IMG/VR virus record: IMGVR_UViG_2627853844_000004
Length of the DNA: 16,995 bases
DNA from: a virus
Taxonomy: Duplodnaviria > Heunggongvirae > Uroviricota > Caudoviricetes
Reading direction: 5' to 3' (one strand)
Below the pieces are notes generated by a model that was not told where the DNA came from, made no database searches, and saw only the letters and a list, made by a program, of their open reading frames with translations. Positions 1-4,374 of this stretch are shown here, piece by piece. Numbering within the stretch: the stretch's first letter is position 1; every line of letters starts with the position of its first letter. Made by a program: the position numbers and the translations under genes.

Positions 1-750
1 TCAGTCAATTGTTTTGTTTATTCCATCTGTGACGCCGATTATTTTCTCAAAATAATGAGATGGCGTGACACCATAATAATCTTTAAATGCACATATGAAA
101 TATGAAGTACTGTTATAGCCACATTTCTGGGCTACGACATTGATAGAATAAGAGTTTGAAGTTATGAGTTTTTTTGCATACCTCATCCTAGTATCTCTCA
201 ATATTTCAGTAAATGACGTTCCTTCATCCCTTAATCTTTTTTTTATTAAACTTTCACTCGTATAAATCAATTCCGCAATATCTTTTAAATGCCATTGCCG
301 CTCAATATTAAAACTGATTATTCCAGTAATTTTACAGGTAAATGTATTTATATTTGTTAGTATAAATGAATTTACACTTTCGCGTTTTTTGAACATGGCA
401 AGTAAGGATATACATAGTCTTTCTTTTAACCAAAGGGAGTGTGAGTCTGCTATTTTAATCCCTTCAAACAGAGAAAAAACAAGCGATAATGGAGGTTCCT
501 CTTCAGCAATATAGCCATTCTTATCAAGAGTAAATTTGCCAGGCAGCTCATTATTCACGTCGATAAAAAAGGATAAACATGTTTTCTTATCTATATCAAC
601 AATTCTTAGTTTAGAGGGGCATACTGGTAACTCCCTTCTAATTTTGTCGCTTACAATAAACAATGAATTTTTTTTGAACGAGATAACTCTCCTGTTTATA
701 ATTAAATCAAATGATTGACAGATGAAAACTACGGAGCAAACATAATCCAT
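1..750 (-). CDS. appY: AraC/XylS-family transcriptional activator, complete 249 aa
   Basis: Complete ORF with stop at 1-3. C-terminal half has the paired helix-turn-helix pattern of AraC regulators. N-terminus [16 protein letters not shown] and 249-aa length match my recollection of AppY. Position next to Tfa remnants at the prophage edge fits DLP12. Confidence 0.8.
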
Positions 751-1295
751 CTTGCACCTATCATAAAATTAAAACAAGTTGATAGTAGTCAAATAACAAC
801 CAATTAAATACACAATCATAATCAGGATGATGTGCATTTATATTTTTATACACAAAATTATAGTTTGCAAATTTTAATAAATTTCATTTAAGATTAAATT
901 ATTATATGTATGTTGTTTTTTATTCTAACTTATTTCAAAGTTACATTTTTCAACGCTTACTATGCTTTTTATTAACATAAACTCACTACAACGCACCTGA
1001 AACCTCTTGCTATATATATGTCAACCGTTTGAATTTAAAATAAAAAGAGTATCATTTTTACTTGCATTTCTTATCAAGTCACATTCAACAACAGTAAAAA
1101 AACATTATTAGAACCATTCAATTAACAAAAAACCAACATCCAGCTTGCTTAATTTTTCTTTATTAAACGATATTGAAAATCAATTGATAAAATACATCTA
1201 AACAACCTTTTGGGGCGCAAAAGCATAACATCAAACAAACAAATAACACACCGAAAAAACTCACAATTAATAACCTATGATATACATACTGTTTA
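751..1295 (-). promoter_or_regulatory. Long, very AT-rich 5' leader and promoter region of appY
   Basis: About 545 bp with no convincing ORF on either strand and strongly AT-biased composition by eye (runs of A/T, few G/C). Lies directly upstream of the appY start at 750. Confidence 0.45.
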
Positions 1296-1556
1296 TTATG
1301 GTTGAATAAGCCACTCGATATCTGGTGCTACGGAAGTGTCCACACGGTTTAGCAGCACCCGATACTTTTTTCAGGCTTCCAGCAACGATCTTTCTTCCTC
1401 CGTTGCGATTTCCAGATCTACAGCATCCTGCAGTGGCGCAATATACTCACTGAATTCCTGGATGTAGAACTGTGTGGTGACGGTCTTCCAGCCATTCGGC
1501 TCCTGCTGTATTGAAGCATACCAGGCTATTTCAATATCGCTATGCTGCGGCAGCAT
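1296..1556 (-). pseudogene. tfaX: Tail fibre assembly (Tfa) gene remnant with in-frame TGG->TGA nonsense codon
   Basis: 61-aa ORF (1371-1556) ends ...[23 protein letters not shown], the conserved Tfa C-terminal motif. The stop at 1371-1373 sits where the paralog at 2334-3077 has TGG (W). The frame continues past it as [24 protein letters not shown] to a second stop at 1296-1298. An AAGGGG Shine-Dalgarno precedes the ATG at 1556. Confidence 0.75.
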
Positions 1557-1694
1557 TTAACCCCTTGTAATTCATTGCCATAATTGATTTAATTCACAAA
1601 TAAAACTATAACATGGTGAAATTAATAAAAAAACACAGATGATGGGGCTAGAATTTACACACCACTTACCCTAAAGCTTTATGACTGGTGGGTT

Positions 1695-2279
1695 TTGGGA
1701 GTATCAAATCGGCTTGCATGGGGATGTCCTACAAAGGAACACCTTCTTCCACACTTTCTGGAACATTTAGGTAACAACCATCTGGATATTGGTGTTGGAA
1801 CTGGGTTTTACCTTACTCACGTACCTGAGAGTAGTCTGATATCTTTAATGGATTTGAACGAAGCTAGCCTGAACGCGGCATCTACAAGGGCTGGGGAATC
1901 AAAAATTAAACATAAAATTAGCCATGATGTTTTTGAACCTTATCCCGCGGCGTTACATGGTCAATTTGATTCCATTTCCATGTCTTACCTTCTTCACTGC
2001 CTGCCTGGAAATATATCTACAAAAAGCTGTGTAATACGCAATGCGGCGCAGGCCTTAACTGACGATGGAACTCTATACGGAGCCACAATTCTTGGCGATG
2101 GAGTTGTGCACAATAGCTTCGGTCAAAAACTGATGCGCATTTACAATCAGAAAGGCATCTTTTCAAACACAAAAGATTCCGAAGAAGGCTTAACACATAT
2201 ACTCTCAGAGCATTTCGAGAATGTTAAAACCAAGGTTCAAGGTACTGTAGTAATGTTTTCCGCTTCAGGAAAAAAATAG
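1695..2279 (+). CDS. ybcY: Class I SAM-dependent methyltransferase-like protein; start uncertain, possibly 5'-degraded
   Basis: Translation contains LDIGVGTGFYL, a methyltransferase motif I (glycine-rich SAM-binding loop). The frame is open back to 1629 with no in-frame ATG; the ORF track start at 1695 is TTG. An out-of-frame ATG ORF begins at 1681. Symbol is from recollection of the K-12 DLP12 gene order. Confidence 0.55.
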   Translation: MGVSNRLAWGCPTKEHLLPHFLEHLGNNHLDIGVGTGFYLTHVPESSLISLMDLNEASLNAASTRAGESKIKHKISHDVFEPYPAALHGQFDSISMSYLLHCLPGNISTKSCVIRNAAQALTDDGTLYGATILGDGVVHNSFGQKLMRIYNQKGIFSNTKDSEEGLTHILSEHFENVKTKVQGTVVMFSASGKK

Positions 2280-2333
2280 CATCCAACCGCAGCATGTTCT
2301 TGCTTAAGACGTGCTGCGGCATAATCCCAATGA

Positions 2334-3077
2334 TTACTCCCTGACAGGGTTCGTAGGCCACTCAATATCAGGTGCAGTTGATGTATCAACACGGTTCAGC
2401 AACACCCGATATTTTTTCCAGGCTTCCAGCAATGAGGTTTCTTCCTCCGTTGCGATTTCCAGATCTACAGCATCCTGAAGTGGCGCAATATGCTCACTGG
2501 CTACCTGCATCAGGCTGTTTTTTGTTTCTTCCGCCTCCCGAATCCGGAACAGTTTTTCTGCTTCTGCATCTTTCACCCAGGCTGTACCGTTCCACTTCTG
2601 AAACTCCCCTTCCGGCGATAACCAGGTAACATTTTCCGGTAACGGACCGAGTTCAGAAATAAATAACGCGTCCCCTGACGCTACGTCATAAACCGTTTTA
2701 CCCCGATGATCTTCAACGAGATGCCACGATGACTCATCACTGTTGAAAACAGCCACGAAGCCAGCTGGAATAAGGGTGTTGCGCTGCTTATGCTCTATAA
2801 AGTAGGCATAAACACCCAGCAGCATTTTGGAATAACCGACACGGGCAGACTTCACCACATTCACCTCACGGATGTAGTCGCTGCCCATCGCATTCATGAT
2901 GGCCCGCTGAAAGGGCAGTGTTTCCCAGCGCCCTTCCTGGTATGCGGATTCTTTCGGGAGATAGTAATTAGCATCCGCCCATTCAACGGCGGTCTGTGGC
3001 TCCGGCCTGAACAGTGAGCGAAGCCCGGCGCGGACAAAATGCCGCAGCCTGTTAACCTGACTGTTCGATATATTCAC
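2334..3077 (-). pseudogene. In-frame deletion fusion: terminase large subunit (gpA) N-terminal 103 codons joined to Tfa C-terminal ~144 codons
   Basis: Residues 1-103 ([28 protein letters not shown]...[14 protein letters not shown]) match the lambda gpA N-terminus as I recall it. From residue 104 ([29 protein letters not shown]...[14 protein letters not shown]) it matches the lambda Tfa C-terminus. Junction lies between 2768 and 2769 (minus-strand ...cttatt|ccagctgg...). Corresponds to the K-12 aaaD/tfaD pseudogene pair by recollection. Confidence 0.85.
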
Positions 3078-3502
3078 TCAGCAACCCCGGTATCAGTTCA
3101 TCCAGCGCGGCTGCTTTGTTCATGGCTTTGATGATATCCCGTTTCAGGAAATCAACATGTCGGTTTTCCAGTTCCGGAAAACGCCGCTGCACCGACAGGG
3201 GGATCCCGTCGAGAATACTGGCAATTTCACCTGCGATCCGCGACAGCACGAAAGTACAGAATGCGGTTTCCACCACTTCAGCGGAGTCTCTGGCATTTTT
3301 CAGCTCCTGTGCATCGGCCTGCGCACGCGTAAGTCGATGGCGTTCGTACTCAATAGTCCCTGGCTGGAGATCTGTCTCGCTGGCCTGCAGCAGTTCTTCA
3401 ACCTCCCGGCGCAGCTTTTCGTTCTCAATTTCAGCATCCCTTTCGGCGGTGATGCTGCCAACTTACTGATTTAGTGTATGATGGTGTTTTTGAGGTGCTC
3501 CA

Positions 3503-3778
3503 GTGGCTTCTGTTTCTATCAGCTGTCCCTCCTGTTCAGCTACTGACGGGGTGGTGCGTAACGGCAAAAGCACCGCCGGACATCAGCGCTATCTCTGCTC
3601 TCACTGCCGTAAAACATGGCAACTGCAGTTCACTTACACCGCTTCTCAACCCGGTACGCACCAGAAAATCATTGATATGGCCATGAATGGCGTTGGATGC
3701 CGGGCAACAGCCCGCATTATGGGCGTTGGCCTCAACACGATTTTACGTCACTTAAAAAACTCAGGCCGCAGTCGGTAA
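3503..3778 (+). CDS. insA: IS1 InsA (transposition repressor)
   Basis: 91-aa [43 protein letters not shown]... with zinc-finger-like N-terminus typical of InsA. Confidence 0.95.
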
Positions 3779-4200
3779 CCTCGCGCATACAGCCGGGCAG
3801 TGACGTCATCGTCTGCGCGGAAATGGACGAACAGTGGGGCTATGTCGGGGCTAAATCGCGCCAGCGCTGGCTGTTTTACGCGTATGACAGTCTCCGGAAG
3901 ACGGTTGTTGCGCACGTATTCGGTGAACGCACTATGGCGACGCTGGGGCGTCTTATGAGCCTGCTGTCACCCTTTGACGTGGTGATATGGATGACGGATG
4001 GCTGGCCGCTGTATGAATCCCGCCTGAAGGGAAAGCTGCACGTAATCAGCAAGCGATATACGCAGCGAATTGAGCGGCATAACCTGAATCTGAGGCAGCA
4101 CCTGGCACGGCTGGGACGGAAGTCGCTGTCGTTCTCAAAATCGGTGGAGCTGCATGACAAAGTCATCGGGCATTATCTGAACATAAAACACTATCAATAA
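3697..4200 (+). CDS. insB: IS1 InsB frame (expressed as InsAB' transposase by -1 frameshift)
   Basis: 167-aa ORF in the -1 frame relative to insA. An A6C slippery run (aaaaaac, 3754-3760) lies in the overlap, which is the known IS1 frameshift motif. Confidence 0.9.
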
Positions 4201-4374
4201 GTTGGAGTCATTACCCCTTTCGGCATACCATTTTATGACGGCGGCAGAGTCATAAAGCACCTCATTACCCTTGCCACCGCCTCGCAGAACGGGCATTCCC
4301 TGTTCCTGCCAGTTCTGAATGGTACGGATACTCGCACCGAAAATGTCAGCCAGCTGCTTTTTGTTGACTTCCAT

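Follow-up and report, generated by a model that had tools for sequence, protein, structure and literature searches.

The closest described relatives of tfaX are the lambda-type tail fiber assembly (Tfa) proteins (Pfam accession PF02413, termed Caudo_TAP), represented by lambda orf-194 and by tfaD, tfaQ, tfaR, and tfaE of E. coli K-12. In the published domain model of these proteins, the N-terminal domain is variable and binds the fibre, and the helical C-terminal domain is conserved and trimerises (PMC9608196). When the premature stop codon of tfaX is restored to a sense codon, the product is 86-89 aa long; its last ~57 residues correspond to the C-terminal end of Caudo_TAP, and residues 27-86 share about 75-77% identity with lambda Tfa. 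The gene also has the orientation of tfaD and lies in the tail-fibre region of a prophage. However, the restored product lacks profile positions 1-74 and is less than half as long as a Tfa protein (about 190 aa), and the K-12 stop shortens it further, at codon 62. In addition, a gene on the opposite strand, ybcY, separates this mini-gene from the fibre and tfa genes in every context examined.

Two families of short phage proteins are relevant as well. PHROG 2341, a family of 88-aa proteins with no assigned function, is the family of the intact form of tfaX, which is chimeric; the copy studied here ends at residue 61, and the chimeric origin is absent from the family description. PHROG 3893 comprises proteins of 79-99 aa (e.g., HK225 gp029) encoded next to dinI and umuD-like genes. 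Its members share the N-terminus of tfaX and, as in tfaX, a short spacer to an accessory gene on the opposite strand, after the tail genes. However, the similarity stops at about residue 37, and the LexA-box-like upstream DNA of the PHROG 3893 loci is not shared with tfaX. At the RNA level, the described relative is Rfam RF02111 (IS009), a candidate from screens of E. coli intergenic regions for small RNAs, whose model aligns over its full length to the 3' segments of both tfaX and tfaD, on the sense strand. Matches to two other Rfam families, CssrB and mir-875, were noise, far below threshold. Finally, tfaX resembles the pseudogenes of the cryptic K-12 prophages (DLP12, Rac, Qin, and e14) in being the point-mutated relic of a morphogenesis gene within a defective prophage, flanked by other damaged genes: a frameshifted ybcY, a terminase-tfaD fusion, and an IS1-split nohD. 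We see no essential difference from these pseudogenes; what tfaX adds is that it was already a chimera in viable phages before it acquired the stop.

The window, by which we mean the whole stretch of 16,995 nucleotides that was analysed (IMG/VR record IMGVR_UViG_2627853844_000004), corresponds to the right arm of DLP12, a cryptic prophage, in an E. coli K-12 derivative; a 411-nt query around tfaX matches K-12 strains, ER1709 and MC4100 among them, with 100% identity. The coordinates of the features are collected in the table. The start codon of tfaX is preceded, 4 nt upstream, by a Shine-Dalgarno-like motif, AAGGGG. The spacer between tfaX and ybcY contains a promoter-like site on the + strand (positions 1557-1584), and hits in promoter and terminator scans did not rise above the level of shuffled sequences. 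RNA polymerase binding to this spacer has been reported in vitro, and the region is reported to be bound by H-NS (PMC3946193; PMC3661553). In other genomes the intact YbcY protein has 222 aa. On the far side of ybcY, the fusion ORF contains the Pfam domains GpA_ATPase (residues 47-102) and Caudo_TAP (residues 125-244), and RefSeq has two partial pseudogenes there; nohD lies beyond it. For tfaX of K-12, RefSeq gives [quoted passage not shown] and this pseudogene feature corresponds to positions 1296-1463 of the window and thus crosses the stop. In the literature, we found tfaX and ybcY mentioned in work on promoter islands and genomic SELEX and in gene lists, and found no functional or expression study of tfaX.

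Table. Features of the tfaX region, with positions as in the window
Feature	Position	Strand	Remarks
appY	1-750	-	
In-frame remnant past the tfaX stop	1296-1370	-	24 codons, then TAA at 1296-1298
Direct repeat copy 1, 3' part of tfaX	1307-1463		
Premature stop TGA (TCA on the + strand)	1371-1373	-	apparent ancestral codon TGG, Trp62
tfaX ORF as present	1371-1556	-	ATG at 1554-1556, 61 sense codons, then TGA
tfaX codons 36-61, Tfa-like, region of the first conserved C-terminal helix	1374-1451	-	93.6% identity to tfaD
tfaX codons 1-35, unrelated to Tfa, homologous to the PHROG 3893 N-terminus	1452-1556	-	
Divergent tfaX-ybcY spacer, 56 bp	1557-1612		conserved along with the cassette
ybcY, class I SAM-dependent methyltransferase	1613-2279	+	pseudogene here, 2 bp deleted after 1626
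Inverted repeat (CCGCAGCAtGT...ACGTGCTGCGG)	2287-2319		directly 3' of ybcY
Fusion ORF, N-terminal fragment of the terminase large subunit and C-terminal part of tfaD	2334-3077	-	TGG retained
Direct repeat copy 2, 3' part of tfaD	2354-2510		spacing 1047 nt

A preliminary description of this locus held that tfaX and tfaD have paralogous 3' ends and that a TGA in place of TGG is the only difference that breaks the frame. Both statements are borne out. A repeat search returned the two 3' ends as a single ungapped direct repeat of 157 nt with 85% identity, and the codon alignment runs without gaps from codon -26 to codon +24 around the stop, with TGA versus TGG as the sole frame-breaking difference. 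The 26 codons that precede the stop are 93.6% identical and the 20 codons that follow it are 80% identical; the latter value corresponds to 48 matches in 60 nt, far above chance (P = 6e-19). Third codon positions account for 16 of the 24 differences overall and for 9 of the 12 differences in codons +1 to +20 (P = 0.004), and the differences in these 20 codons cause a single amino acid change (V/T). A third-position bias with one amino acid change is the signature of a protein-coding sequence. The near-synonymous divergence from tfaD probably reflects selection that acted on authentic tfa genes prior to capture of the fragment. The open frame past the stop is unremarkable by itself, as 26% of random 24-codon stretches are free of stops; the evidence lies in the conservation of the sequence. 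The same description had counted 25 conserved in-frame codons past the stop. Frame and conservation hold, and the count does not: 24 sense codons are followed by TAA.

The TGG version of the tfaX stop region exists in nature. We found it, within an otherwise identical stretch of 86 nt, in nine complete E. coli genomes, which come from diverse wild isolates (rodent [rock rat], blackbird, bovine, and human). In all three carriers that we inspected (A39, BHUCD02, and OkiPb01714), the TGG allele is at the same appY-side locus (appY-ompT-envY), and ybcY is intact or damaged differently. Over the 551 nt from 1150 to 1700, only three events separate A39 from the window, namely T1371C, an indel of 2 bp within ybcY, and a single SNP, and the 75 nt past the stop are unchanged. 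Furthermore, an alignment of 20 homologues, full-length Tfa proteins among them, shows W62 to be nearly invariant. Because Trp is nearly invariant among homologues and TGG alleles occupy the same locus, TGG appears ancestral, and the comparison confirms the proposed TGG to TGA nonsense change, which was a single G to A transition. The frame past the stop would be preserved simply because the mutation is young, as judged by the absence of changes relative to A39. The description of the mutation as recent is thus apt at the sequence level and inapt if taken to mean a laboratory event. The TGA version of the same 86-nt stretch occurs in about 550-600 of 20,395 records, a figure that is a bracket only, as the BLAST summary does not separate full-length from partial matches within its identity bands. 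Its carriers are mostly K-12 laboratory derivatives, along with human, dog, and bird isolates and one from a panda. The same TGA allele, with the same flank as in K-12, is present in PhiR68_2, which has been used as an infective phage (bioRxiv 10.1101/2025.11.03.685801).

The similarity of tfaX to tfaD is confined to codon 36 onward, codons 1-35 having no relation to tfaD. With the stop restored, an 88-aa product matches Caudo_TAP with 89 bits (E = 4e-25) over profile positions 75-131 of 131; the truncated 61-aa product still scores 29.7 bits (cut-off, 22.1), its residues 31-61 covering profile positions 75-105. The N-terminus has other relatives. A tblastn search matched it to Klebsiella phage Kp4882-3 (51% identity, E = 8e-6) and, more weakly, to HK225, Eeyore, and HK140. 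BLASTP aligned residues 2-37 with residues 1-36 of a PHROG 3893 protein (19 of 36 identical [53%], E = 3e-12), and hmmscan gave E values of 3e-7 to 6e-8 against phrog_3893, whose matching members include HK225 gp029 and the 79-aa proteins of Eeyore and Kp4882-3. The product of the TGG allele matches PHROG 2341 from end to end (positions 1-88 of 88, E = 5e-61). Hundreds of relatives with this N-terminus were found in a collection of 5.8 billion proteins, and they are short: typically either 86-89 aa, ending as natural Tfa proteins do, or 55-108 aa, with various truncations and junk tails. The few homologues longer than about 110 aa have unrelated extensions, and no full-length Tfa carrying the tfaX N-terminus was found in this collection or in phage genomes. 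We rejected the idea that tfaX is simply a tfa gene truncated at its 5' end, since all carriers of this N-terminus are short; the lack of a full-length Tfa with it favours a chimera. Intact tfaX is thus a chimera: it starts as a PHROG 3893 gene and, from about codon 35/36, continues in frame into the final ~52 codons of a tfa gene.

This architecture changes what the stop means. The preliminary description had called tfaX an inactivated tfa copy. The stop is real; however, the intact allele is already a chimera of 86-89 aa in which only the last ~57 residues are Tfa-like. By the domain model of Tfa (PMC9608196), even the restored product would lack the fibre-binding N-terminal domain and keep only the C-terminal part. 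The AlphaFold model of the 86-aa product places helices at residues 5-17, 26-47, and 53-69. It suggests that the product is probably helical and that a stop at residue 62 would cut the third helix; the latter point carries little weight because the confidence of the model is low (pLDDT, 55.7).

The chimera does not travel alone. In every context examined, the mini-tfa gene is 56 bp from, and divergent to, the gene for the 222-aa YbcY. In lambdoid prophages at several integration sites, the pair follows the stf-tfa genes; in P2-like prophages near smpB, it follows the tail fibre genes H-G; and in phages without any tfa, it follows tailspike genes. About 2,200 E. coli genomes have the cassette. 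Infective lambdoid phages with this cassette are ev243, PhiR26/29/30, Kati, Turner, and PhiR68_2. A Pin-type recombinase was seen near the cassette in PhiR68_2 only. In an alignment of five contexts, the homology on the ybcY side begins at the inverted repeat. On the other side it ends within the tfa-like 3' segment, at a point that varies by lineage, with different 3' tails beyond it. Because the edge of the cassette is always inside this segment, the conserved 3' end of tfa probably acts as a joint for homologous recombination between phages. The window itself is virtually identical to other E. coli copies from 1378 to 1625 and shows many synonymous differences from them from 1377 down, so a recombination breakpoint lies at 1377/1378, two codons before the tfaX stop. 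Within the window, the 3' segment forms a direct repeat with tfaD that brackets ybcY and the 5' part of tfaX. We also considered the locus as a relic of an invertible tail-fibre segment of the Mu G, P1 C, or e14 P type and rejected this: tfaX points the same way as tfaD, and copies of the cassette occur without an invertase.

Several other readings of the stop and of the conserved stretch around it have to be weighed against a TGG to TGA loss. One of them reverses the direction: TGA would be original, and the nine TGG genomes would be revertants or would carry patches converted from another tfa copy. Among records with this 3' tail, TGA does outnumber TGG by roughly 60 to 1, and recombination between prophage tfa copies does occur. 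However, hundreds of laboratory derivatives of K-12 swell the TGA count, the TGG alleles come from a varied set of wild isolates, with intact or differently damaged ybcY in the three inspected, and Trp occupies this position in every other Tfa lineage. Moreover, the TGG genomes keep K-12-type synonymous variants on both sides (1368 and 1374), so a conversion tract would be shorter than ~6 nt. We regard a TGA origin as very unlikely. Much the same judgment applies to the idea that the UGA is functionally read through, with 61-aa and 86-aa forms of TfaX made in a set ratio and the frame past the stop under selection. On the one hand, UGA is the leakiest stop in K-12, where the RF2 allele is inefficient and mostly Trp is inserted (PMC10570021; PMC11126739), with read-through in K-12 reporters of about 2% at 37 C and 4% at 25 C (PMC10570021); Trp is also the ancestral residue here, and the 24 post-stop codons are intact. 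On the other hand, the UGA is not conserved, being confined to one allele lineage while other homologues have TGG or different lesions, and the post-stop stretch is identical to that of the TGG allele of A39, which leaves no time for selection to act or to show. Searches of positions 700-2700 against Rfam revealed no SECIS or other RNA family beyond IS009 at E <= 1, the RNA at and beyond the stop has an ordinary fold (z = -1.41, with equally good folds in 17 of 200 shuffles), and open stretches of this length are common by chance, as noted above. The adjacent ybcY is also broken in the same strain, which fits a general decay of the cassette. Thus, the low-frequency read-through raised in the preliminary description does not stand as a specific feature, and in its functional form it is highly improbable. 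If the mRNA is translated, the ordinary leakiness of UGA in K-12 would give a few per cent of full-length product with the ancestral Trp, generic at most and not designed. A third reading attributes the conservation past the stop to RNA function, with the stretch being the small RNA gene of IS009. The covariance model matches tfaD (2377-2575) with 227.8 bits, above the gathering score of 117; tfaX (1330-1533), with 110 bits (E = 5e-26), is below it. The paired part of the model lies before the stop, and the part after the stop is unpaired in the consensus. The post-stop differences follow the coding signature described above, and the same sequence is the sense strand of Caudo_TAP coding regions. 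An RNA gene is extremely unlikely, and we take RF02111 as what is probably a description of conserved tfa coding sequence and not as evidence of an RNA gene here.

Whether the intact chimera was ever a working gene is a harder question, and it bears on whether the K-12 stop cost anything. It could be an accessory protein (a trimerisation-domain decoy or a general co-chaperone), in which case the stop is a real knock-out. Most sampled alleles have an open frame of 86-89 codons with the natural Tfa C-terminus, and the frame is kept even at ~20% protein divergence (i.e., about 80% identity) across phage types. They have a good ribosome-binding site, are found in many prophages as well as in infective phages (Kati, ev243-type, PhiR26/29/30, and Turner), keep the constant 56-bp spacing to ybcY, and form a family widespread enough to have its own PHROG. 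Pairwise dN/dS values of about 0.35-0.5 against diverged copies are below 1 as point estimates and may hint at weak purifying selection, which, if true, would make the K-12 stop a loss of function and not a neutral change. However, these values come from only 3 synonymous changes, and tests of dN/dS on the chimera, with 3-7 synonymous changes, are underpowered. Close alleles show 3 synonymous changes, 5 non-synonymous changes, and 1 stop in codons 1-35, where about 4 non-synonymous changes per synonymous one are expected under neutrality, so neutrality is not rejected. The mini-gene also diverges more than the adjacent methyltransferase (dS of 0.18 versus 0.02-0.035). Furthermore, the chimera has been disrupted many times independently. 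In strain 124, Q29 is replaced by a TAG stop; in strain 184/2aE, there is a frameshift; a 55-aa form exists; and in the very common 101-aa and 82-aa forms (O55:H7, ev243, and 2013C-4187), the last ~10 Tfa residues are replaced by unrelated sequence. Phage Ayreon retains a stump of 32 codons and has the methyltransferase deleted as well. Because the infective PhiR68_2 carries the TGA allele, the last 24 residues of tfaX are dispensable for plaque formation. Taken together, the evidence leans toward the intact chimera having no function, or only a weak one. We consider a working mini-Tfa unlikely and keep some probability for it because most sampled alleles are open and end as Tfa naturally does. 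A more specific version, in which the PHROG 2341 chimera is a phage accessory protein that carries Tfa trimerisation helices on an unrelated N-terminus and moves as a cassette with ybcY, and in which the UGA allele is a leaky knock-down, is improbable too. If it were true, the chimera may co-assemble with Tfa of the same or superinfecting phages and modulate or poison fibre assembly, and the K-12/PhiR68_2 allele would still give wild-type protein, at a few per cent, by misreading of UGA as Trp.

Thus, tfaX is very probably a decaying remnant and not a working gene, in which a chimera lost its end through a neutral TGG to TGA change; we infer that tfaX itself is non-functional. Its probable history is as follows. 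Recombination joined ~35 codons of a gene of the PHROG 3893 family, including the start codon, to ~52 codons of tfa, yielding the 86-89-aa "mini-Tfa" that corresponds to PHROG 2341. Paired with ybcY, 56 bp away and divergent, the mini-Tfa gene occurs as a cassette in lambdoid, P2-like, and tailspike phages, where the tfa 3' segment probably serves as the stretch of homology for recombination between phages. In the lineage of K-12 DLP12 and PhiR68_2, one G to A change turned the TGG codon of Trp62 into TGA, with the loss of the last 24 residues. This change was probably neutral because the chimera already had no fibre-binding domain, has been broken repeatedly elsewhere, and carries TGA in an infective phage.

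For K-12 itself, the result matters little: it confirms a pseudogene with an internal stop, and tfaX is an ordinary, already annotated pseudogene. Its use is in annotation, as ORFs labelled "tail fiber assembly protein, partial" beside ybcY-type methyltransferases are a recurrent chimera and not simple truncations. For phages more broadly, the cassette of chimera and methyltransferase can serve as an example of how short conserved coding segments act as recombination joints in phage mosaicism.

Comparison with copies in unrelated Escherichia coli revealed an abrupt mosaic boundary inside tfaX, at window position 1377/1378. Window 1378-1625 is near-identical to those copies, and from 1377 downwards most synonymous sites differ. 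This divergence argues that the K-12 3' tail (ending ...DIEWLIQP) comes from a different tfa lineage from the tails of the other copies.

The divergently oriented partner gene, ybcY, is also damaged in the window: 2 bp are missing near its start (ATG GTG AAA TTA AT^AAAA). The deletion is absent from ybcY of A39, BHUCD02, OkiPb01714, and fM51a and of phage PhiR68_2. Because PhiR68_2 combines the tfaX TGA with an intact ybcY frame, the tfaX stop is the older of the two lesions.

At other loci the mini-gene carries independent lesions: strain 124 has Q29->TAG with the frame preserved past the stop, strain 184/2aE has a frameshift close to the 3' end, and in phage Ayreon (L008, 5264-5362) the mini-gene is a 32-codon stump and the methyltransferase is deleted. 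Separately, a further broken chaperone-like fragment lies just past mini-tfa in several genomes (L018, L019 [strain 184/2aE], and L023; positions 12-281, minus strand), where it is annotated as a DUF4376 domain-containing protein, "internal stop; incomplete." Broken fragments of this sort seem to collect at the mini-tfa end of the prophages.

PHROG 3893, the donor family of the tfaX N-terminus, looks SOS-regulated: in HK225, Eeyore, and Kp4882-3, LexA-box-like sequences (TACTGTATATNNATACAGT) occur within the short stretch separating dinI from the PHROG 3893 gene, and a umuD-like gene comes next in two of these three loci. The tfaX/ybcY spacer has no LexA-box-like sequence.

Coordinates of features in the window and at the PHROG 3893 comparison loci
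Feature	Position	Strand	Remark
Rfam IS009 (RF02111) match	window 2377-2575 and 1330-1533	-	covers the 3' coding part of tfa, in sense orientation
ybcY methyltransferase gene, tfaX partner	window 1613-2279	+	2-bp deletion after 1626
tfaX/appY intergenic region	window 751-1295		AT-rich
IS1 element	window ~3448-4215		interrupts nohD (DLP12 small terminase subunit)
LexA-box-like sequences	L015 (HK225) ~2958-2976; L016 and L017 (Eeyore and Kp4882-3) just upstream of position 3004		

RF02111 is entered in Rfam as a small-RNA gene; what it describes is probably a conserved stretch of coding sequence, not an RNA. Elsewhere in the window, the nohD/IS1 junction is complete in only 6 complete genomes, and five of them, all K-12 laboratory strains (ER2796, ER3413, and three MG1655 derivatives), match it at 100%. 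Published work describes the tfaX/appY intergenic region as an H-NS-bound "promoter island" and reports divergent transcription start sites upstream of appY (PMC4469952, PMC3661553).

The genome of PhiR68_2, an infective lambdoid phage, holds ybcY, tfaX (TGA allele), appY, and ompT together (L007, 4276-7756). Phage ev243 (L009) also carries ompT, plus an alpha/beta hydrolase gene, adjoining the integrase. Because an infective phage has both appY and ompT in its genome, these "host" genes of K-12 are cargo of phages and remain mobile in nature.
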